In this document: positions 1,254 through 37,127 of the stretch, piece by piece
Layout: each line of letters begins with the position of its first letter
Numbering within the stretch: position 1 is the stretch's first letter
From: a virus
Lineage: Duplodnaviria > Heunggongvirae > Uroviricota > Caudoviricetes
DNA: 37,127 nucleotides
Strand: one strand, 5' to 3'
Virus record (IMG/VR): IMGVR_UViG_2923339551_000001
The notes under the pieces: model-generated
What the model saw: only the letters and a program-made list of their open reading frames with translations
What the model was told of the DNA's origin: nothing
Database searches by the model: none
Position numbers and translations under genes: made by a program

Positions 1254-2147
1254 CTATTTCCAGTTACAAGCATCTTGAAGCGGTTTTAGTGCATTTGACA
1301 GGCCGCTTAAATTGAAAGTTGCACTTACAGGGCTTTCATTATAAGGGGTTATTTTTGTGTACATTTTATGTGAGTTGGCAAGTTTTCTTATGAAATCAAT
1401 ATCATTACCTTTATAAAAAACAGCCTTTGTATCTGTAGATATTAGCCAGTTTCTTTCAACTGCTTTCTGTTTATCAAGACGATACAGCATGCTGGTTTGT
1501 TCAAGGCCTAAATATACATCCCAACTAAGAAATACTTCGGTTTTCTTTTCTCGGCAAGCTATAAACAGAGTGGGAGTAACAGCTTCTCCAAATGGAGTTC
1601 TGATATAATCATCACTTTCTAACGATAAAATTATATTTTTCGAATCATCAATTGGCGATGTAGTAATGGACGTGTGCCATTTTCCTGCATCTGTGGCTTT
1701 CTCTAATTGTGATTCAGATTGAACAGCTTCATCCTGTGGGAATAGTTTATCGTAGCAGTTTAGTCTGGCTTCTTTATCATTTTCTGCTCGGCATTTAGAT
1801 ATTTCAGAAAGATTTGGTTGCTGAGCCTTTGTTGTTACTAGCTTTTCCGTTTTAGATTTTGAGTTTACAGATGGAGTAAATGTTGGAGAAAAAAAACGAT
1901 CATAACAAGATAAACGTTTGTCATCATCTTTCTCATCAGGGCATTGATCCCTGCTTTCAAATTTTTCAGCAACTTTCGTTCGAGTCGGTTGTATTGACTT
2001 ATCGTAACAAGAAAGTCTGTCTTTATTGTTTTCTATCGCTCGGCACTGGAGCACTGCATTGAAATTCTTATGTTCAGTTGCTGCATGAACAGGCAGTACA
2101 CTAATTGATATAAATAATGCACCTATAGAAAAAATCATATTTTTCAT
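1254..2147 (-). CDS. Hypothetical secreted protein with three Cys-containing repeats
   Basis: 297-aa ORF, AT-rich; N-terminal signal-peptide-like segment (MKNMIFSIGALFISISVLPVHA); three repeats of C-x8-9-RLxCYD(K/R)xF; family not recognised. Confidence 0.6.
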   Translation of the reverse strand: MKNMIFSIGALFISISVLPVHAATEHKNFNAVLQCRAIENNKDRLSCYDKSIQPTRTKVAEKFESRDQCPDEKDDDKRLSCYDRFFSPTFTPSVNSKSKTEKLVTTKAQQPNLSEISKCRAENDKEARLNCYDKLFPQDEAVQSESQLEKATDAGKWHTSITTSPIDDSKNIILSLESDDYIRTPFGEAVTPTLFIACREKKTEVFLSWDVYLGLEQTSMLYRLDKQKAVERNWLISTDTKAVFYKGNDIDFIRKLANSHKMYTKITPYNESPVSATFNLSGLSNALKPLQDACNWK

Positions 2148-2151
2148 TTTA

Positions 2152-2484
2152 TTATCCCTTTGGTTTAGTAAGAAATACTAAAATTCCGATAATGATATCG
2201 CCAATAACCCATAAGCCTCCAATGACAATTAAACCTAAGCCCGTACCAATAACTGCCCCAGCTTTTTCGGCATCGGATGTGGTATTGTTTATTATTTCAT
2301 CAGCGCCTCCTAGTCCAACTAAAAGTGTATAGATCATAAAAATATTAAAAAATATAAAAGTCCATTTAATGAGTTTTCCAAAAAATGAACGCTTAAGTTT
2401 TTTCAGTTGTTTACCACAAGCAGGGCAACATAATGCTGAATCGCTTACCTCTTTCTGGCATTCAGGACATTTGATTAATGTCAT
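2152..2484 (-). CDS. Hypothetical zinc-ribbon membrane protein
   Basis: 110-aa ORF; N-terminal CPEC-x10-CCPAC zinc-ribbon motif followed by two hydrophobic helices; 4 nt upstream of the secreted-protein gene, likely one operon. Confidence 0.6.
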   Translation of the reverse strand: MTLIKCPECQKEVSDSALCCPACGKQLKKLKRSFFGKLIKWTFIFFNIFMIYTLLVGLGGADEIINNTTSDAEKAGAVIGTGLGLIVIGGLWVIGDIIIGILVFLTKPKG

Positions 2485-2683
2485 GTAATCCGTCTCCTTT
2501 GGAACACTACAAGCTGAAATTTGTTACAAAACATTTTGATTTTATCAGATTTTTTGTTGTTGATAAGTGCCAATTGATTAACTGGTTTAGAGTGATACAT
2601 ATAGAAAGGTAGAGCAGTGTCAGTGTGTGATGAAATACCCACAGTTTCATGGGATTTTTGCATTTAGAGCTGTGAGATAGGGT

Positions 2684-2790
2684 AATGTAGTTCAGTTAAG
2701 GAATTGAGGTTCGATAGCTCGAACCTCGCGCAGAGGCAAGATGACTGAAAGCCTGATTCCTTAATGCACAAAAATGAGTCTCTATTCATA
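2684..2790. repeat. Left terminal inverted repeat of the cassette
   Basis: Reverse-complements to 4056-4166 at roughly 93-95% identity (hand alignment); contains nested internal palindromes ttaaggaat/attccttaa and gaggttcga-tagc-tcgaacctc. Confidence 0.6.
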
Positions 2791-2996
2791 GAAGTGTATT
2801 AACTAATCGACATCGCCTGTTGTGTGGATTGCCCCCATAAACACGGGCTTTCTGCTTGTTTAGTAGTCACAGTATGTCTAAGCTTTCTCGTTAGCTTCTT
2901 CTGAAATGACCTGCACTACAAGCCCGCGCTTCCCATACACCACATGCAGTGCAAACTGACGCATCGGTTTTTCAATCAGCTAACTAAAAGTTTGGC

Positions 2997-3830
2997 TCAC
3001 CAAACGATGCGCCCATCTGATGTATGTCCTTTGGCTTGTTTTACTATACTGAAATCTACTATTCCATATGGATAAATTTTATTTACTTTAAACACAAGAT
3101 TAGCAACTAAATGCATTCTCGATTTAACTGTTTCTGTGCGCAAAGCGATATTTGAGGCCCCTTTTATTTTAGCGCTAGGATAAATGAGACCATCAACATC
3201 AGGGTATTTATCAAGAAGAAGACGGCAAAAAATTCTTGAGTAAATATAATTTACCTCATGGGCATTGATACTATTAAGCAACTCAGCAGAAAGGGCATCC
3301 ATATACAAATATGATAGCAAAGCACGGATGTCGTCCTTACCAATTCTGCTAATGATGCCACGAATTTCATTAAACACTTCAATTGAAATTGTATTTACAC
3401 CGTGATACACATTAAAGACCTCACCGATAGCAAAACATCGCATTCCAGACTCTGAATTTTCCGGCATCTTAAAGTGAGCTATGTGAACATAATCCCCTTC
3501 TTTTGCATTAATTTCGGCTAAAGCTGTTCCGATACTATAAGCGCCATAGAAGATAGCTTGTCCATCATCATTCATTCGGCCTATTTTACATTTTTCTGGT
3601 GGAGGGGGATATATTTCACTGATGTTATTATATCCGCATTCATTTGGGCACTTTCGCGCTCTAAAAATTGGTCTGTCATAACCGAACTTGAAATTAACAC
3701 CGCCATATGATTGAAGATACCATCTAAGTAATCTCTCTACTTTCTCTGGCTTTATAGTAGTTAGTAATTCTTTACGAAACAGATCAAGACTATTTAACTC
3801 AATTACCTTTAGCTTATTATTCATGACCAT
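2997..3830 (-). CDS. RES-domain protein (putative NAD+-targeting toxin), no adjacent antitoxin gene
   Basis: 277-aa ORF, AT-rich; motifs FRAR, GRMNDDGQAIFYGAYSIGTALAEI and GLIYPSAKIKGASNIAL match the Arg/Glu/Ser signature regions of the RES family as I recall them; no Xre-like partner ORF in the cassette. Confidence 0.55.
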   Translation of the reverse strand: MVMNNKLKVIELNSLDLFRKELLTTIKPEKVERLLRWYLQSYGGVNFKFGYDRPIFRARKCPNECGYNNISEIYPPPPEKCKIGRMNDDGQAIFYGAYSIGTALAEINAKEGDYVHIAHFKMPENSESGMRCFAIGEVFNVYHGVNTISIEVFNEIRGIISRIGKDDIRALLSYLYMDALSAELLNSINAHEVNYIYSRIFCRLLLDKYPDVDGLIYPSAKIKGASNIALRTETVKSRMHLVANLVFKVNKIYPYGIVDFSIVKQAKGHTSDGRIVW

Positions 3831-4055
3831 CCCTATAATTTTAGAGTTTCGTTATTCACTTTACACTTCATGCTGACCAGTTACCGCCACTGAGTCTACT
3901 GCACAGGCTAACAATTTATGGTTATTTTTCAATGTACAAGTACAAAAAATCAAGGCGTTCTAGAACTAGAAGTCGTCAGTTGACCGCGAAAGGTAAGAGG
4001 CGGCATTCAGACAATGCGGGGGATACACCGCCAATGTCGAGTAGTTAAGCGCTTT

Positions 4056-4166
4056 TATGAATAGAGACTCATCTTGGGCATTAAGGAATCAGGCTTTCGG
4101 TCATCTTGCCTCTGCGCGAGGTTCGGGCTATCGAACCTCAATTCCTTAACTAACTGAACGGCATTG
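4056..4166. repeat. Right terminal inverted repeat of the cassette
   Basis: Reverse complement matches 2684-2790; followed by the 12-bp direct repeat. Confidence 0.6.
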
Positions 4167-4239
4167 GTGAGATAGGGTGCCTTATCGACCTTACCCTGGC
4201 AACCGATTGACGGGGGATTGCTCCCCCGTCGCGGTTTCC

Positions 4240-4380
4240 TTACTGCTTACACTGTAAGAACGCCGCAAACTCCGCTCCCCAGAAGCTCATCCGTATTTCG
4301 CACAGCGAACCGTGCAGCATCCAGATGATGAGGATTGCCGTCACGCAGAACGTGATGGCCGTAAGCGATTTTTGCGACAT
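4240..4380 (-). CDS. hok: Hok/Gef-family type I toxin (small membrane peptide)
   Basis: 46-aa ORF not in the track (under 60 aa); hand translation MSQKSLTAITFCVTAILIIWMLHGSLCEIRMSFWGAEFAAFLQCKQ; SLCEIR and E-x-AAF motifs and the TM segment fit Hok/Gef; AAGGAG Shine-Dalgarno 8 nt upstream. Confidence 0.6.
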   Translation of the reverse strand: MSQKSLTAITFCVTAILIIWMLHGSLCEIRMSFWGAEFAAFLQCKQ

Positions 4381-26767: not shown

Positions 26768-27298
26768 ATGAAGAAAGATTCATATCCTTATTTGATTTGC
26801 ATGACTGTTTCAGTGCTAGGGATTATTTTCCTCTTTTACTGGTGGAGGGCAGATATCTACAGGATTACATATCTTAATTCGCGTATATCCAATTATTACA
26901 TCTTGTGTAGTATGGGTATGTCCTTTTTCTTCTCCTTGTTTCTGGTGAAGAGGGGGGTAGTGAAGCAAAGTGGCTGGAAAGGACTGTCGGAATACCTGAA
27001 GGTTTATGCTGGCTCTTGCATTCTTACAGGGATATTCCTGATTATCCCTCTTATGATGGTGACTTATTTTTTACCAGGAGTAACATCATCATATGTTGCA
27101 CCGTATGAGTATACATCCGGTAGTTCAAGAAGCTGTTCCGGAGCGTTTGTTGATGATCCCGATCTGCATAAAAATATTCTTATTTGCTATCCGTATGGTA
27201 ACTATGAATATGACAATATTATCTATGTTGAAAAGAAAACTAATGCATTGGGCGTTGTTGTGACGTATGCACAGACTGCACGAGACGATGCTGAATAA
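26768..27298 (+). CDS. Hypothetical 3-TM membrane protein with Cys/Tyr-rich C-terminal domain; cargo at the P2 tin/old hotspot
   Basis: 176 aa, strongly AT-rich versus the phage backbone; three hydrophobic helices then a soluble tail; occupies the position and orientation of tin/old in P2. Confidence 0.65.
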   Translation: MKKDSYPYLICMTVSVLGIIFLFYWWRADIYRITYLNSRISNYYILCSMGMSFFFSLFLVKRGVVKQSGWKGLSEYLKVYAGSCILTGIFLIIPLMMVTYFLPGVTSSYVAPYEYTSGSSRSCSGAFVDDPDLHKNILICYPYGNYEYDNIIYVEKKTNALGVVVTYAQTARDDAE

Positions 27299-27388
27299 GA
27301 TACTACAGAGATAGTCCACTTTTTTGTTTATTTGTCGGGATAAAAACAAATTACCCCGACTCACCATGTATTAATCTTCCGCTTTAAG

Positions 27389-27772
27389 TTAGTCTTGTAG
27401 CTGCGCTGTCCTGCTATGCAGCAAAGCGGCGTACTTTAATGCGTCCTGTGCTTTCTGGAATTTAAGTGCATAGTCAGTGGCGATTTTTTCCAGTTCAGCG
27501 ATTCGGTTGTCTTTGGTTTCCAGCCAATCAAGTAGCGCCAATACTTCAGGATCCCCGACATCCAACACTGTTACGCGTGATTTTTCATAATGTTCGTCGG
27601 CAAGAGTTCGACCAATTTTGAAATCTCCATCATCACCATAACCGGAGCAGCCATAAACAACCTGTGCTCCAGATATTCGCTGAATTGACATTTCTTCGCC
27701 GCAAATAGGGCATTTTGGTACTGGTGCAGGTGAATAACGTTCACGTAATGCCTGATAGTTGATTTTGCTCAT
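27389..27772 (-). CDS. Zinc-ribbon protein (topoisomerase-type C4 zinc finger) with coiled-coil tail
   Basis: 127 aa; CPICG-x14-GCSGYG motif resembling the zf-C4_Topoisom ribbon; last gene of the A-parM-parR transcription direction. Confidence 0.6.
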   Translation of the reverse strand: MSKINYQALRERYSPAPVPKCPICGEEMSIQRISGAQVVYGCSGYGDDGDFKIGRTLADEHYEKSRVTVLDVGDPEVLALLDWLETKDNRIAELEKIATDYALKFQKAQDALKYAALLHSRTAQLQD

Positions 27773-27835
27773 TAAGTCGCTCTTCTTGTTTATGTTCTGA
27801 GATGGAGATCAGGGCGAACTCGCCCTGACGTTGTG

Positions 27836-28147
27836 TTATTCAGGAAATAACGCCCTGATATTTCCGGCCATCTGACTGGTTATCTGTGCGGTTGGTACTG
27901 GCTGTGACAGGGGGCGTTCTGTCCTGGTTTGTGTCACTGATAACGCCTCATCGTCAGCCCATGCTGCCAGTCGGTAAGCCTCTGCCGGATTCATTTTCAG
28001 AAGCGCCAGCCCAGCCAGAAAAGCCACGCGTTGGCCGTTTTTACGGGCTTCTGGTGTAAGGCTGTCCAGCCAGGCGCATGCTTCGCCTTCGTTCTTGACG
28101 GCGGCGGGCTTCAGATAGAAACTTATTCGTCTGGTTGGTGTCGTCAT
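27836..28147 (-). CDS. parR: ParR/StbB-like partition adaptor
   Basis: Track ORF 27836-28282 overlaps parM; start placed at the internal Met (MTTPTRRISFYLKP..., about 103 aa); resembles plasmid R1 ParR (ISFYLKP / LDSLTPEAR / AFLAGLAL); immediately downstream of parM. Confidence 0.6.
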   Translation of the reverse strand: MTTPTRRISFYLKPAAVKNEGEACAWLDSLTPEARKNGQRVAFLAGLALLKMNPAEAYRLAAWADDEALSVTQTRTERPLSQPVPTAQITSQMAGNIRALFPE

Positions 28148-28151
28148 TGGT

Positions 28152-29111
28152 TTACTCCTTGTCCATTGCGTACAGCCCATTAACCAGAGCAAACTGTGGC
28201 ACCCCGTCCGCGATGAAAGTCGCATTAACTCCGCAGGCTTCGCGGATAGCGGGTGCCACAATCTCCGCCCCGCCACCGACAACCATCACCCGCCCGTAAC
28301 CCGAAAAACCCGCCAGCGCGCGGATCACGCGTTGTTTCAGTGTTTCTTCCTTTTCACGAATAACCGCCATCAGGCTGGCGTAATGCGCGTCATTGTGGAT
28401 GTGCTGGCGCAGCCAGGCTTCATCATGGCGATGTTCGATAATGGTATTGGCGATGTGGTGACTGGTACGCATACCGTTAGTGGCCATCACCGACAGTACT
28501 GCATCGGCCATCAGGGAAACGCCTACGTGTGGATCGCAAAACACCTGGCTGATACCTGCCAGTTGTCCCTGAACCTTTGCCACATCCAGCGTGGTTCCAC
28601 CTAAATCCACAATCAGCAGGGATTCAAACGGACTCATGTCAGCCAGTGCTTTAAAGCCAGCCGGAATGGATTCAGGCATAACCCGTACATTACGGATAGT
28701 GAATGCTTCGCCGTTCTGGTATTCCACCGGGCGCATAACGTTTGCTTTTTTGCGGTTGATGTTGGCCATGTCCGGCTGTGCGTTTGTGTCGAAATACTCG
28801 CTCAGTGGCAGGGTGACAACCACATCCACCTCCTGTGGCGTGATGCCTGATTTGACCAGCGCGTGATGAATGGCAATGACATTCACATCGCTGTACTGGT
28901 ATTGCGTGTCGGTCGTCTGGACAAAGCGATCGCTGACCGGATCAAAACCATAGCGCACGCCATCAAGCATGTAGTTCGCGGGCTGCGTGCCACCGAACGG
29001 CGCAGACCATTCCGACTTGAAGCTGTTCGGGCTGATGGCGTTGCGGCGTTCGCCGTTCTCAGTCCATGCCAGCTTGATGTTGGTGGAGCCGTCGTCGATA
29101 CAAATTTTCAT
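28152..29111 (-). CDS. parM: ParM/StbA-like actin-family partition ATPase
   Basis: 319 aa; N-terminal MKICIDDGSTNIKLAW, LIVDLGGTTLDVA and VVGGGA motifs closely match plasmid R1 ParM as I recall it. Confidence 0.8.
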   Translation of the reverse strand: MKICIDDGSTNIKLAWTENGERRNAISPNSFKSEWSAPFGGTQPANYMLDGVRYGFDPVSDRFVQTTDTQYQYSDVNVIAIHHALVKSGITPQEVDVVVTLPLSEYFDTNAQPDMANINRKKANVMRPVEYQNGEAFTIRNVRVMPESIPAGFKALADMSPFESLLIVDLGGTTLDVAKVQGQLAGISQVFCDPHVGVSLMADAVLSVMATNGMRTSHHIANTIIEHRHDEAWLRQHIHNDAHYASLMAVIREKEETLKQRVIRALAGFSGYGRVMVVGGGAEIVAPAIREACGVNATFIADGVPQFALVNGLYAMDKE

Positions 29112-29146
29112 GTCGATTTTCCTTATGTTGATTAATTAATCGTTTA

Positions 29147-29255
29147 GGGGATTCTGAAATCCCGTTTTTGCCTGTTTTGTGCGCGCTTCATATATCACTG
29201 CGCGTTTTTTGCTCATTTACGGGATTCGTGAGTCCCGTTTCTGTCTGTTTTTTGT
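29147..29255. repeat. Two ~34-bp direct repeats, each a GGGATTC...GA(A/G)TCCC hairpin plus T-run, straddling the A stop and parM start
   Basis: ggggattctgaaatcccgtttttgcctgttttgt (29147-29180) and cgggattcgtgagtcccgtttctgtctgttttttgt (29220-29255) read directly. Confidence 0.45.
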
Positions 29256-32010
29256 TTCCACTGGTCAGGCCACCCCGCAGCAGGTCTGCTTTGCGGCGGG
29301 CGCGTTCAGTGGTTTCACTGATTCTCTGTGCGTGCTCTGCGTCGCGGATGGCGCGCAGCATGTCAGAAAGCACGGTAACGGGTGTTTTCATGGTGTTCTG
29401 GTCTTGCTGAAGTGTGGATGCCAGGCGTGCGGCGGCTTCGGGGTCTGATGCCGCCAGCTGTTCCAGATAGCTGGCGACCGGGTTATGGCGGATCTCCGTG
29501 CTGCTTACGCCGTGGTTACGGCTCAGGCGCTGCCAGAGCTGCGTGATCCGGCTGTCCGGTCGGGTATCCGGTTTGCGTACAATTTCAAATCCCTGCGGTG
29601 CAATGATGCTGCCGTCAACGTACAGACTGCCGCCCCGTAACAGGTGCTGCATCTGCTGTTCACCGATATGCAGGCCGAGAGATTCAGCAGACTCCCGCCA
29701 TTCTTTAGCGAGTAATTCGTGGTTATCAGGCAAAGGCCGCTGCTGTTTGCGGCTCTGTGTCCAGCTCTGCATTTCATCACTGCTGTTTTTTGCCTGTTTG
29801 TCACGAAGCGAACGCATCAGCGCCCGGCGTTCGTGCCGTTTCAGTGAGCGCATCCATTCGTTCACTTCAACGCCGTCAGGGAGCTGCGGCCACGGTGCTG
29901 GCCGTTCTTCCGGCTGTTCTGTCCCGTTGTTGTCCGTTTCCTGTACACGGGGACAGTTATTGCCACGAGTCCAAGGGGCGGCAGGGCCGCCCTGAAGGTC
30001 AAAACCATTTTCGTGGGCGCTGTCTTCCGGTTCTGGTTTACGTCTTACCAGCTTCCAGTTATCCGGATGCGTGCACACACGGGAGGATTCCCCGATGAGT
30101 GGTGACCAGATCCCGTAAATCTGTACGCTCTGTTCGCCGTAATCGTTCAGCTCATCTGCGAGGTCGTAGGCGGTGCGAATCAGGTAGTCTTTGCGTGGAA
30201 CAAGCACGCCGCCCTGTTTCTCTATGTAGGTGGCAAAACATCCGGCATCAGCGGCAGCAAGAACCGCATCCATTGCGTCATTTTCCAGACGTTGCGGTCC
30301 CTGTGGGTTACGTGCCATCTGACAGGCAAGGCGGCGCAGTTCACGCCACACCTGACGGGAAGGGATGCCAAAGAACTGGAACTGGCGGACCCGGTGAAGG
30401 CGCGCCCAGCCGATGGCGCGTTCCACGCTTTCTGCCATCGTCTTTCCTGATTCGTCGTCGATGCGCGGTTTGCCTGTTTTCGGGTCAATGCCATCCACGG
30501 CGCGGCTGTCCAGGTTCTTTCCGATGTAGGTGGCGATGTAGCTGGTCGGCGTACCTTTCGAACCGTCGACGTACTCTGCCTTAAAGCGCGGAGTTATGTC
30601 ATTGCCCAGCTCGTGGCGGTCTTCGCGAATGGCAATATCACGGGTGATGTCCACGATGCTGTCGATTTCTTCAGGATGTGCAAAGACCATCATGTGCCAG
30701 TGCACGGTGCCGTCATGGTGAGGCTCCACCGTGCGAATGCCATACCAGCGCAGGCCGTCGCGGTTCAGTTTTTTGCGGACCGCCTTAAAAAACGTGTTAA
30801 CCAGGTAATCGCTGGAATCGCGCATGGTGGCCCCGTTCCATTTGGGGTTCGGATGACCGTTCTCCGTTGTTGCGTGGTACTTCGAAGGGGTAGTGACAGT
30901 CAGAAACACCGCTTTGTCGCCACGGGCTTCGGCCAGAAGTTCCAGCCCCTTCATGGTGGCCATCATTTCTGCCTTACGGTGAACCGGGTTACTTACTCCC
31001 GCGTAATACACCGTCTCGAGATCAATCGTGAACCCGTCTTCATTTTCCAGCATGAAACTTTTCAGGAAATCGCGTGTTTTCTCGCGCTGTGCGCGAAACT
31101 CGCTTAACGCGTCCTGGCTCAGATAGGGTGATGTTTTTCTGGAAACCAGACAGGCGGCGCGGAGTTGTTCTTCTCTCCACTCGCAACGTAACAGCCACAG
31201 TTTGCGTTTCCACCATTCCGCACAGGTCAGGCGAAGGATTGCGCCCGGCAGCAGCTCCGTGTCCGGTTCGTTCCTCCGGTCTTTGTCTGTTGTCAGTGCG
31301 TCATAATGTGAAGGCATGGCGTGCAGGTGTAACGCCATGCGGGCCAGCATCTGATACGCCTTCAGCGTCACCTCCATGGTCAGCTCTCCATCGGTCGCGC
31401 CAAAGCCATCGCAGAGTTTTTCGAAGGTGCTGCTGAACATCGCCGCCGTCATGGTGGCCAGCGTCTGTATCTGGTGTTTGTTGAGTTGCGGCAGGTAAAG
31501 CAAATCGTCCAGGCGTTCGCGTCCGGCAAGGGAGCGATAACCCGGTGTCAGCCAGCGGTGATCGGTGCGGTCCAGACGTTCGAATATTTTGCGCAGGGTT
31601 CCGCGTGCGTAGCGTTCAGCCTGCCAGCTCTTTTTGCCTTTCCGGCGATCGGCTTCCTGTTTTTTGCGCAGGAAGGAGAGGTGGCGAATAAGCGGATCGC
31701 GCAGATAGGACGGCAGTAGGCGCAGCGAGGCCATGGCTTCATCCACCGCGCCGCGTGCCTGTTTTCTGGCGTCTCCTGCCAGTGTGATGGTTTTGTCCTG
31801 TTTTTCCTGTGCGTCCAGGCTTTTATTAATCAGGTTGCCCAGCGGCGTTGCGGAGAACGCCGCATCAGCCATTTCCTGGCGGCGCTCGTTCTCTGCCCGG
31901 TAGGCATCCAGCCAGGAGGAAAGCGCGGATTCAGGAGCGGGGATCCCCGTTCCTTCACGCCCCACTGCGTGGCGCGGTTGTTGCCAGTCCCTGATGTACT
32001 CTGCCGTCAT
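29188..32010 (-). CDS. A: Replication initiation endonuclease A (rolling-circle Rep)
   Basis: 940-aa ORF; long block of similarity to P2 gpA (SPY.S...LTVTTPSKYH...VEPHHDGT.HWHMM...YIAKYI.KN.D); true start and C-terminal extent uncertain. Confidence 0.85.
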   Translation of the reverse strand: MTAEYIRDWQQPRHAVGREGTGIPAPESALSSWLDAYRAENERRQEMADAAFSATPLGNLINKSLDAQEKQDKTITLAGDARKQARGAVDEAMASLRLLPSYLRDPLIRHLSFLRKKQEADRRKGKKSWQAERYARGTLRKIFERLDRTDHRWLTPGYRSLAGRERLDDLLYLPQLNKHQIQTLATMTAAMFSSTFEKLCDGFGATDGELTMEVTLKAYQMLARMALHLHAMPSHYDALTTDKDRRNEPDTELLPGAILRLTCAEWWKRKLWLLRCEWREEQLRAACLVSRKTSPYLSQDALSEFRAQREKTRDFLKSFMLENEDGFTIDLETVYYAGVSNPVHRKAEMMATMKGLELLAEARGDKAVFLTVTTPSKYHATTENGHPNPKWNGATMRDSSDYLVNTFFKAVRKKLNRDGLRWYGIRTVEPHHDGTVHWHMMVFAHPEEIDSIVDITRDIAIREDRHELGNDITPRFKAEYVDGSKGTPTSYIATYIGKNLDSRAVDGIDPKTGKPRIDDESGKTMAESVERAIGWARLHRVRQFQFFGIPSRQVWRELRRLACQMARNPQGPQRLENDAMDAVLAAADAGCFATYIEKQGGVLVPRKDYLIRTAYDLADELNDYGEQSVQIYGIWSPLIGESSRVCTHPDNWKLVRRKPEPEDSAHENGFDLQGGPAAPWTRGNNCPRVQETDNNGTEQPEERPAPWPQLPDGVEVNEWMRSLKRHERRALMRSLRDKQAKNSSDEMQSWTQSRKQQRPLPDNHELLAKEWRESAESLGLHIGEQQMQHLLRGGSLYVDGSIIAPQGFEIVRKPDTRPDSRITQLWQRLSRNHGVSSTEIRHNPVASYLEQLAASDPEAAARLASTLQQDQNTMKTPVTVLSDMLRAIRDAEHAQRISETTERARRKADLLRGGLTSGNKKQTETGLTNPVNEQKTRSDI

Positions 32011-36026: not shown

Positions 36027-36122
36027 GGCCAGAAAACTGGTTAGACCTGCTTTTTGTCTGGTCTGATTATTGCTGGAAAGAGGCTGGAGAAATTGTAGAG
36101 CGGTTCATTGGAGGGCTTCGTA

Positions 36123-37127
36123 ATGTCGATTAAGAAGCTCGAAGATGGTCGTTATTTGCTGGACATCAGGCCGAACGGACGCAAGGGAAAGCGCGTGCGT
36201 AAGGTATTTGACAAAAAATCGGTAGCGGTGGCCACTGAACGCTACATCATGGCGAACGCTGAAAAGCGGGAATATATACAGGGCTACCGTGATCGTCGAA
36301 CGCTAAATGATTTGCTTGAGTTGTGGTGGATGTATCACGGCCAGCACAGGCGTAAGGCGGAAGAAGACCGAAAACAACTGCGCAACATAATCAATGAGCT
36401 TGGCGCTGATATGCAGGCTGTGGATCTTGATAAGCTGAAAATTATCGCGTGGCGTTCTCAAAAGATAGCTGAAGGATTGAAACCGTCATCTGCTAACAGG
36501 TACATGAATCGGTTATCCGGAATGTTTACCGTGCTGAAAAAAATAGGTCTTTGGGATGCAGAACATCCAGTAAGGGGAATTTCTATTCTTTATGTATCTC
36601 CACGAGAAATGGCGTTCCTGTCACAGAAGGAAGTGGCGCTATTGCTCGATACACTGGAGGGCGACTACTGGCGTGTTGCGCTTTTGTGTTTAAGCACAGG
36701 GGCGCGCTGGAGTGAAGCTTGTAAGCTTCGTGGTGAACAGATAGTTCATAACCGTGTAACGTTTCTTGAAACCAAAAATGGCCGGAAGAGAACAGTGCCA
36801 ATTTCGCAGGCAGTTTGTGAGGCGATCAAAACCAGAGAAACAGGCGGCTTGTTTGAGGTGAAGTACCGGGAATTCTGCCTGGCGCTGAAAAGAGTTAAGC
36901 CCGATTTACCAAAAGGCCAGGCTGCACATGTGCTGCGGCATACGTTCGCCAGCCATTTTGTGATGAACGGAGGAAACATTATTGCGCTTCAGAAGATTCT
37001 TGGTCACGCAACCATTCAGCAAACAATGGCATATGCGCATTTTGCACCGGATTACCTGCAGGATGCGGTGGCCCTTAATCCGCTGAAAGGTGGCGTAAGT
37101 GTCCACGCAGTGTCCACGGGGGATTAA
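36123..37127 (+). CDS. int: Tyrosine integrase
   Basis: Track ORF 36108-37127; start placed at the ATG at 36123 (GGAGGG Shine-Dalgarno), about 334 aa; C-terminal HxxR...Y catalytic region (VLRHTFASH...MAYAHF); ends at the window edge. Confidence 0.9.
   Translation: MSIKKLEDGRYLLDIRPNGRKGKRVRKVFDKKSVAVATERYIMANAEKREYIQGYRDRRTLNDLLELWWMYHGQHRRKAEEDRKQLRNIINELGADMQAVDLDKLKIIAWRSQKIAEGLKPSSANRYMNRLSGMFTVLKKIGLWDAEHPVRGISILYVSPREMAFLSQKEVALLLDTLEGDYWRVALLCLSTGARWSEACKLRGEQIVHNRVTFLETKNGRKRTVPISQAVCEAIKTRETGGLFEVKYREFCLALKRVKPDLPKGQAAHVLRHTFASHFVMNGGNIIALQKILGHATIQQTMAYAHFAPDYLQDAVALNPLKGGVSVHAVSTGD

Follow-up and report, generated by a model that had tools for sequence, protein, structure and literature searches.

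The IMG/VR virus record IMGVR_UViG_2923339551_000001 (37,127 nucleotides; "the window" means this whole stretch hereafter) is a P88-like prophage of E. coli, of the genus Xuanwuvirus in the family Peduoviridae (P2-family), and carries a partition cassette composed of parM and parR on the minus strand, directly after gpA, the gene of its rolling-circle replication initiator. An earlier note on this DNA had already placed the cassette downstream of gene A and on the same strand, in the position of P2 orf91, and this is correct; gpA lies upstream on the minus strand, and in P2 itself orf91 directly follows gene A. The features of the conserved module, read along the coding strand, are as follows:

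29188-32010, minus strand: gpA, rolling-circle replication initiator, 940 amino acids (Pfam Phage_GPA, 6.9e-129)
29953-29976, minus strand: predicted origin (nick-site region) inside gpA, by homology to the P2 origin
29221-29236, minus strand: parC-like site 1, GGGACTCACGAATCCC, a palindrome core within the last gpA codons
29182-29204, minus strand: GC-rich inverted repeat CGCGC-N13-GCGCG, spanning the gpA stop, between the two sites
29148-29163, minus strand: parC-like site 2, GGGATTTCAGAATCCC, 73 bp from site 1 and 37 nt ahead of the parM ATG
29127-29141, minus strand: conserved A/T box GATTAATTAATCAAC, past site 2 and ahead of the ribosome-binding site
28152-29111, minus strand: parM, actin-like segregation ATPase, 319 amino acids (Pfam, PDB 1mwk, motifs, and the ratio of nonsynonymous to synonymous substitution rates, dN/dS)
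27836-28147, minus strand: parR, ribbon-helix-helix adaptor, 103 amino acids, short form (Pfam, alignment, profile)
27809-27828, no strand assigned: GC-rich hairpin directly after the parR stop, kept in phage P884B11, the end of the conserved module

ParM aligned to the ParM of plasmid R1 (PDB 1mwk) across residues 2-316 (E = 9e-93, 46.7% identity over 315 positions) and matched Pfam StbA_N (1.8e-82, 275 bits vs. a cut-off of 24.6), the Pfam ParM C-terminal domain (1.3e-68, 230 bits vs. 27.4), and PHROG 691 ("partition protein"). The nucleotide-binding motifs are all kept in the alignment to R1 ParM (IDDGSTNIK, PESIPAG, VDLGGTTLD, and GGGAE), and we take these to correspond to the phosphate 1 motif (DxGxxxxK), E148, D170 (DLGGTT), and the adenosine motif (GGGA) of R1, respectively. 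The earlier note had called the protein a close ParM homologue and had named a lack of ATPase motifs as what would overturn this; with the alignment running end to end and the motifs intact (DDGSTNIK, PESIPAG, DLGGTTLD, GGGAE), the identification stands. In 12 of 13 P88-like sequences (the window plus 12 loci), ParM has its full length and all motifs are intact, the exception being the record of phage 503458 (NC_049341.1, our L019). In that record, parM, parR, gpA, the portal gene, and the terminase gene are all split into fragments, which looks like sequencing frameshifts rather than biology. Separately, three ParM clusters of the database (P0006, P0010, and P0017) consist of N-terminal fragments of 188-261 amino acids, some of them on megabase contigs, and the fragment clusters include fusions with tail protein I, Ead/Ea22, and macro domains; together, these clusters point to deletions that have hit parM repeatedly in some lineages of E. 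coli.

The parR gene begins at the ATG at 28147, 4 nt past the parM stop and with an AAGGAG ribosome-binding site 8 nt ahead of it, and ends at 27836; the mechanically called open reading frame (27836-28282) is an upstream extension of it. The adaptor role that the earlier note had read into this gene agrees with a match of its product to Pfam Plasmid_stab_B (5.4e-24, 84 bits vs. a cut-off of 25) and of the family profile, built from 11 homologues, to the ParR of plasmid pB171 (PDB 2jd3, 7.8e-17), a match in which the C-terminal tail aligns with the end of pB171 ParR. The N-terminal strand and helices are conserved (R6, F10, Y11, L12, and P14), the linker is variable, and the C-terminal motif N96-x4-F101-P102 is nearly invariant over 11 ParRs from phages, integrative and conjugative elements (ICEs), and plasmids. 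At least three ParR alleles, differing chiefly in the linker, exist within the P88-like group, next to ParMs that are 96-100% identical. Two of these ParRs (L005 and L020) are only ~53% identical to that of the window, and the linkers are unrelated among the allelic classes (L005, L007, L018, and L020), which suggests recombination or diversifying change confined to parR.

Candidate cis sites and the predicted origin

Upstream of parM lie two 42-nt repeats (29140-29181 and 29213-29254), 73 nt apart, each containing an 8-4-8 palindrome, ACGGGAyT-N4-AATCCCGT; the repeats that the earlier note had seen between 29147 and 29255 are therefore real. Both parC-like sites are kept in 12 of the 12 P88-like loci examined, and the 37-kb window holds no further copy, that is, two sites only. 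A shared two-site element, GGG-N7-WAWCCC, with copies 72-73 bp apart, is found in three lineages, i.e., the P88-like phages and P2-like prophages of Hafnia (GGGATTGAGGAAACCC and GGGTTCATTAAATCCC, spacing 73 bp) and Plesiomonas (GGGACAACAAAAACCC and GGGACAACACTAACCC, spacing 72 bp). In all three, the end of the second site is 37-43 nt from the parM ATG, a ATTAATCAA box follows the site, and the ParR strand reads RR(I/V)SFYL. The corresponding prophages of Serratia and Enterobacter have the ParR strand RKISFYL and, instead of the two sites, a 14-20-nt inverted repeat with ATAGAAAAAT motifs, and a plasmid-like relative (L014) has an R1-style array of 11-bp iterons, of which there is no counterpart at the window locus. 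It is the position and spacing kept at about 62% ParM identity that make up the real evidence for these candidate sites.

The A/T box, whose core ATTAATCAA is the one found in Plesiomonas and Hafnia too, could possibly represent a weak -10 region, and no coding-strand terminator was found between gpA and parM. The inverted repeat at 29182-29204 reads CGTGC...GCACG in L018 and L019, where both arms are changed, and CGTGC...GCGCG in L015, where a G-U pair is still possible on the sense RNA; the stem also appears in the RNA fold of the parM leader, and the repeat may form an RNA hairpin between gpA and parM. The leader fold itself has a modest z-score (-2.9), and in its minimum-energy structure the two similar palindromes just pair with each other, so the fold fits an RNA structure and a protein-binding site alike.

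The gpA product is 30% identical to P2 A across about 750 residues. The P2 record annotates the nick site within gene A, and this region can be aligned with the window (P2 GCGCCTCGGAGTCCTGTCAATAACTGT, window GCCCCTTGGACTCGTGGCAATAACTGT; Hafnia is similar), with the P2-type origin core CCTTGGACTCGTGGCAATAACTGT kept at 29953-29976 of the window and in Hafnia. By this homology, the predicted origin would lie ~0.75 kb upstream of the parC-like sites. The origin region of the window encodes AAPWTRGNNC, where P2 has AAPRSPVNNC. At 940 amino acids (P2, 761), gpA aligns from residue 77 to 800 with P2 residues 42-740, and its C-terminal extension of ~140 residues beyond the P2 alignment overlaps parC-like site 1.

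Distribution, gene order, and selection

A megablast search with positions 27300-29300 matched 14 phage records, each of them P88-like, as well as 1359 of the 5426 complete genomes of E. coli; the number of these genomes with the cassette is 1359-1478, about a quarter of the total. Searching 50,697 phage records with the ParM protein (tblastn) recovered those 14 records and the plasmid-prophage D6 (47.8% identity) only, and the gpA type of the window (at least 92% DNA identity) is confined to the same 14 records, i.e., gpA and parMR co-occur in 14 of 14. RefSeq already annotates the cassette (ParM plus a partitioning/stability protein), P88 was put among candidate phage-plasmids by Pfeifer et al. 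2021, and both the cassette and speculation about an episome have been published previously (Pfeifer 2021; Rousset 2022, PMC9122126). The P88-like branch thus has the cassette as a regular part of its core, as reported before, and the view that an actin-type partition system is unexpected in an integrative peduovirus, from which the earlier note had started, does not hold given these frequencies. The same note had considered its idea refuted if parMR were routine in this phage lineage with a documented role; routine it is, while an experimentally documented role was not found, and the literature on ParM with P2-like phages, Peduoviridae, Xuanwuvirus, and P88 yielded annotation-level mentions only. 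Since P88-like prophages occur in about one quarter of the sequenced E. coli genomes, the cassette is probably among the most abundant ParMRC systems of E. coli. What we add here is the gene order across genera, the selection on parM, the two-site element in three lineages, and the near-exclusive chromosomal state.

The survey of other P2-like prophages that the earlier note had proposed revealed that the order gpA (sometimes followed by one or two small genes)-parM-parR-variable genes-portal recurs in four other genera:

Plesiomonas P2-like prophage: ParM 63% identical to that of the window, gpA-parM-parR-variable-portal order
Hafnia P2-like prophage: ParM 62% identical, same order
Serratia P2-like prophage: ParM 58% identical, same order
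Enterobacter ludwigii P2-like prophage: ParM 54% identical, same order

These distant contexts come from a search for homologous proteins followed by inspection of the encoding contigs; a locus search with ParM alone gave near-identical loci only. At 49-50% identity, the ParM homologues whose context was inspected sit in an ICE (Dickeya) or a plasmid-like region. In a neighbor-joining tree, for which genomic context was established for some clade members only, the phage-borne ParMs form two clades with 200/200 bootstrap support each and 99/200 for their union; with the latter at ~50%, the tree is compatible with one old capture or with two. One further match was a 226-kb contig labelled Vagococcus sp. 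(NZ_JBQPOM010000071.1, L006), which carries a P88-like gpA-parMR with a ParM 98% identical to that of the window and is probably an enterobacterial contamination or a mislabelled assembly.

Among 11 P88-like loci, dN/dS was 0.06 for parM and 0.13 for gpA, and hence ParM is more constrained than the essential replication initiator; the corresponding values for ParR were 0.14-0.23 in the N-terminal domain and 0.64-0.72 in the linker. The cassette is a core module that is conserved, under strong constraint, and tied to gpA and the predicted origin; it is neither hotspot cargo nor evidence of a plasmid lifestyle.

Chromosomal state and role of the cassette

The two ends of the window bear on where the element resides:

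1-996: host flk, at the window edge
36108-37127: integrase, at the other window end

These ends, together with a 99.4%-identical genome in which the same prophage is placed between flk and pdxB, indicate that the prophage is integrated, as the earlier note had stated. The insertion sites vary among relatives (e.g., the btuC side in SCU-176 and flk/pdxB in the window). A btuC-adjacent insertion for the window, which the best BLAST match had suggested, was ruled out by the window's own flk/pdxB flank.

With a 7-kb query spanning the portal end, the cargo, parR, parM, and gpA, we counted 1772 chromosomal vs. 2 plasmid places in the 5426 E. coli genomes, that is, P88-like elements are chromosomal in >99.8% of places. 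A shorter query had given 43 plasmid places that suggested episomes; the longer, phage-specific query leaves the 2 above, and most of the 43 are probably ordinary plasmid parM genes. In PLSDB, 7 of 72,556 plasmids match at >90% identity, namely five replicons of 228 kb-1.4 Mb, one linear 26.7-kb fragment, and one circular record of 34,461 bp. The latter (NZ_CP148288.1, L003), labelled as a plasmid of an E. coli isolate from a cat, is the only match that is both circular and of phage size and contains a whole P88-like genome with its integrase. An integrated prophage of the human isolate Z1323HEC0067, with a strain-name prefix in common, agrees with it at 100.0% identity over the 7-kb query, and the circular record looks like an excised copy of a phage that normally integrates. 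P88-like elements retain integrase and cox, and their P2-type gpA (Phage_GPA) is the sole replication gene among the genes scanned, with no plasmid-type replicon; KS14, the only plasmid prophage established so far to have P2-type virion genes, has RepB and ParA and no gpA homologue (PMC3091744). Accordingly, stable plasmid lysogeny is unlikely, and a transient circular phase is to be expected for any excising or infecting P2-type phage. Of the episomal phase that the earlier note had suggested, the stable form is thus disfavored (1772 vs. 2 places), and a transient form is the best reading.

Known partition systems provide a frame for what the cassette may do. R1/NR1 parMRC (stbAB) and pB171 par1 have the same order as the window (cis site-parM-parR), and the similarity extends over the full length of R1 ParM and, for pB171 ParR, to the same Pfam family and a profile match that includes the C-terminal tail. 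Unlike these systems, the cassette of the window belongs to a P2-family phage that integrates, and it comes right behind a rolling-circle initiator gene; in place of an R1-type iteron array, it has a cis element of two palindromes spaced by 73 bp, and its ParR, at 103 amino acids, is without the central segment of plasmid ParRs. The best functional analogy is with SrpMRC of the SXT/R391 ICEs, a type II partition system on a normally integrated element with a rolling-circle enzyme and few centromere repeats; its four-repeat centromere system lowers the loss of the excised, rolling-circle-replicating form (Carraro et al. 2015, PMC4489591). SrpM and SrpR are described as distantly related to ParM and ParR of R1, with SrpR being without homology to ParR (PMC4489591), and the analogy has its limits in that the carrier is an ICE, not a phage, and that function was shown for Srp and is a proposal for the window. 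AlpAC/alpS of the Corynebacterium glutamicum prophage CGP3 likewise combines, on an integrated prophage, an actin-like ATPase with an adaptor for which the binding sites lie upstream of the operon; its genes are switched on early, and the excised phage DNA requires them to replicate efficiently (Donovan et al. 2015, PMC4446434). However, it belongs to another actin-like family and an actinobacterial host, whereas the P88-type proteins have close homologues in plasmid ParM and ParR. Among plasmid prophages, D6 has the ParM noted above (its record notes "similar to phage P88 StbA protein"), P1 and N15 have partition systems of the ParAB/SopAB types, and the P2-like Burkholderia phage KS14, with RepB and ParA, indicates that a P2-type virion module is compatible with plasmid lysogeny (PMC3091744). 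These phages are without chromosomal integration or have plasmid replicons, as opposed to the P88-like phages, which keep integrase, cox, and gpA.

Taken with the homology, conservation, selection, synteny, conserved sites, and chromosomal state observed here, we favor the hypothesis, to which we would give a probability of roughly 55%, that the cassette is a functional module of the ParMRC type within the replication region of the phage and acts on the extrachromosomal circle after excision or infection. That is, because the integrase is kept, integration is near-universal, and the gpA-nicked origin is predicted to lie ~0.75 kb away, the substrate would most likely be a transient extrachromosomal circle. 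Under this hypothesis, ParR dimers would attach to the pair of palindromic sites immediately ahead of parM, and the ParR C-terminal tails would, by homology to R1 and pB171, capture filaments of ATP-bound ParM. The growing filaments would then push apart or position the circular phage genomes bearing the sites, and in this way the module might keep replicating copies distributed to daughter cells, or well placed, until integration or packaging. If true, this would extend active partition in a brief extrachromosomal phase, as known from the SXT/R391 ICEs and CGP3, to tailed enterobacterial phages, with a candidate centromere that is small and well defined (two 16-bp sites 73 bp apart).

Several observations weigh against this hypothesis. 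Truncated parM forms (the P0006, P0010, and P0017 clusters) comprise ~1,600 member sequences vs. ~5,600 in full-length clusters, i.e., roughly a fifth of the database members, which implies that many lysogens tolerate the loss of parM, although some of these forms may be partial genes at contig ends. P88-type ParR is without a central segment of ~25-45 residues that every other ParR of the alignment has, whether from plasmids, ICEs, or other phages. The parC of R1 has ten iterons. The two candidate ParR sites of the window are far below this number and could be a mere operator, and because the site consensus was built from the very sites counted, shuffle counts do not represent independent tests of it. 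Further, a scan for sigma-70 promoters upstream of parM found no consensus site; as a control, the same scan on plasmid parC regions gave a promoter-like site on the parM strand in L021 and none in L014, and this ambiguity makes the negative scan weak evidence. Experimental work on the P88-type cassette was also not found in the searchable literature.

Alternatively, it is possible, although we consider it doubtful, that the module is a phage cytoskeleton for establishment or lytic growth and not an inheritance device. P2-type phages package from monomeric circles, and ParM filaments on a minimal two-site centromere by the origin could serve to separate and position the monomeric circles that arise from gpA rolling-circle replication; if this were the case, an actin-like spindle would be required for efficient replication, packaging, or lysogenization in a quarter of E. 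coli strains. An unlikely explanation, in our view, is that of a facultative phage-plasmid, in which lysogeny is by integration or as a stable low-copy plasmid, with parMRC serving the plasmid state. A complete partition cassette, the circular 34,461-bp "plasmid" record with a whole P88-like genome, the use of a ParM homologue by the P1-like plasmid-prophage D6, and the fact that the idea was raised by Pfeifer 2021 and Rousset 2022 are all in line with it. Yet the chromosomal places outnumber the plasmid ones as described above, the few PLSDB matches are mostly large replicons or fragments, the circular record has an integrated counterpart that is 100.0% identical over the 7-kb query, and integrase and cox are kept with no plasmid-type replicon, unlike KS14 (RepB and ParA; PMC3091744). 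Hence, the cassette is probably not a support of stable plasmid lysogeny, nor, for the reasons given next, of defence.

A role in competition appears quite improbable, be it that incoming plasmids or related phages are excluded or destabilized by partition incompatibility or that the set serves as an anti-phage system within the hotspot, and the corresponding suggestion of exclusion or defence in the earlier note is disfavored. The cassette does adjoin the gpA-to-portal hotspot, which bears defence systems in P2-like phages (PMC9122126), and at least three ParR allelic classes with diverged linkers accompany a nearly invariant ParM. However, the cassette itself is not variable cargo but conserved core, being present in 14 of 14 members of the lineage and syntenic across genera, with parM under strong purifying selection (dN/dS of 0.06); the variable slot begins after the parR hairpin, and a PADLOC scan of five local proteins gave no match. 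In addition, the parM genes of ordinary plasmids show only ~67% DNA identity and come with other iterons, which makes cross-incompatibility unlikely. Very improbable, too, is that ParR is mainly a repressor at two operators and ParM a hitch-hiking or decaying remnant of a plasmid capture with no role in segregation. The restriction to two sites that overlap the expected promoter region, the shortened ParR, and the common truncated parM alleles would fit such a relic, but parM is the most constrained gene measured (more than gpA) and is full length with intact motifs in all P88-like sequences examined except that of 503458, where other genes are fragmented as well; moreover, parM is kept at 54-63% identity in other genera, and the ParR C-terminal tail is nearly invariant. 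Finally, we give the least credence to the idea that the system acts in the integrated state, moving or anchoring sister chromosomal loci that bear the sites to the benefit of the host. Such a function would match an element that is nearly always chromosomal and very common in E. coli, but the insertion sites differ among relatives, so there is no fixed chromosomal position to serve, and it is with gpA and the predicted origin, not with host genes, that the cassette is associated; in addition, truncated forms are tolerated, and no precedent was found. The transient-circle hypothesis is, therefore, the one that we retain for the cassette.

The variable slot after parR and the prophage end

The region that follows the cassette differs from it in being variable. 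Similarity to relatives other than P884B11 stops at the hairpin at 27809-27828, where the variable slot starts, and the window has the following genes there:

27389-27772, minus strand: truncated Ead/Ea22-like gene, 127 amino acids (Pfam Ead_Ea22; variable cargo)
26768-27298, plus strand: predicted multi-pass membrane protein, 176 amino acids, in a low-GC insert (GC ~0.43)

The first of these had been taken in the earlier note for a topoisomerase-type zinc-ribbon protein, and this assignment had to be replaced. The 127-amino-acid protein matches Pfam Ead_Ea22 (PF13935) at 3.3e-29 (102.7 bits vs. a cut-off of 27; profile positions 1-111 of 139), all zinc-ribbon models remain below their cut-offs on it (e.g., Zn_ribbon_Top1 with 15.2 bits vs. 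32), as does the NCBIfam topoisomerase I model (18.7 bits vs. 930), and its three cysteines (C21, C24, and C42) do not provide a four-ligand CxxC...CxxC arrangement. It corresponds to residues 1-124 (97% identity) of the 196-amino-acid gp56 of phage P884B11, and DNA alignment with P884B11 showed that the 3' end of the gene was replaced by the low-GC insert; RefSeq marks the gene as incomplete in a 99.8%-identical genome, and it is absent from P88, phiSM, and others. This Ead/Ea22 remnant is variable cargo, unrelated to the partition cassette.

The predicted 176-amino-acid membrane protein, likewise unrelated variable cargo, matches phrog_1416 (unknown function) at 1.6e-45 over residues 90-175 only and gave no PADLOC hit. 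Its gene, listed as frameshifted in the annotation of the near-identical genome SCU-176, is a candidate for a function in superinfection exclusion or defence. In relatives, the slot is occupied by a ClpX-like gene and small genes (P88), DUF3800, HicAB, or a KAP NTPase. The gpA-to-portal hotspot was described by Rousset et al. 2022, with defence systems there in P2-like phages (PMC9122126), and in P2 the hotspot between gpA and the portal gene holds old and tin (P2 map; PMC9122126).

A second cargo block, of low GC (0.36-0.38), lies at the flk end of the window, at 1254-4380, between host flk and phage ogr, and includes a Hok/Gef gene in addition to the following:

1254-2147: TagO-like protein
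2152-2484: zinc-ribbon domain protein
2997-3830: RES-family NAD+ phosphorylase

Lying at the att-proximal prophage end, this block may represent an island of toxin or defence genes, and the circular relative L003 has a methyltransferase and Com in its place.

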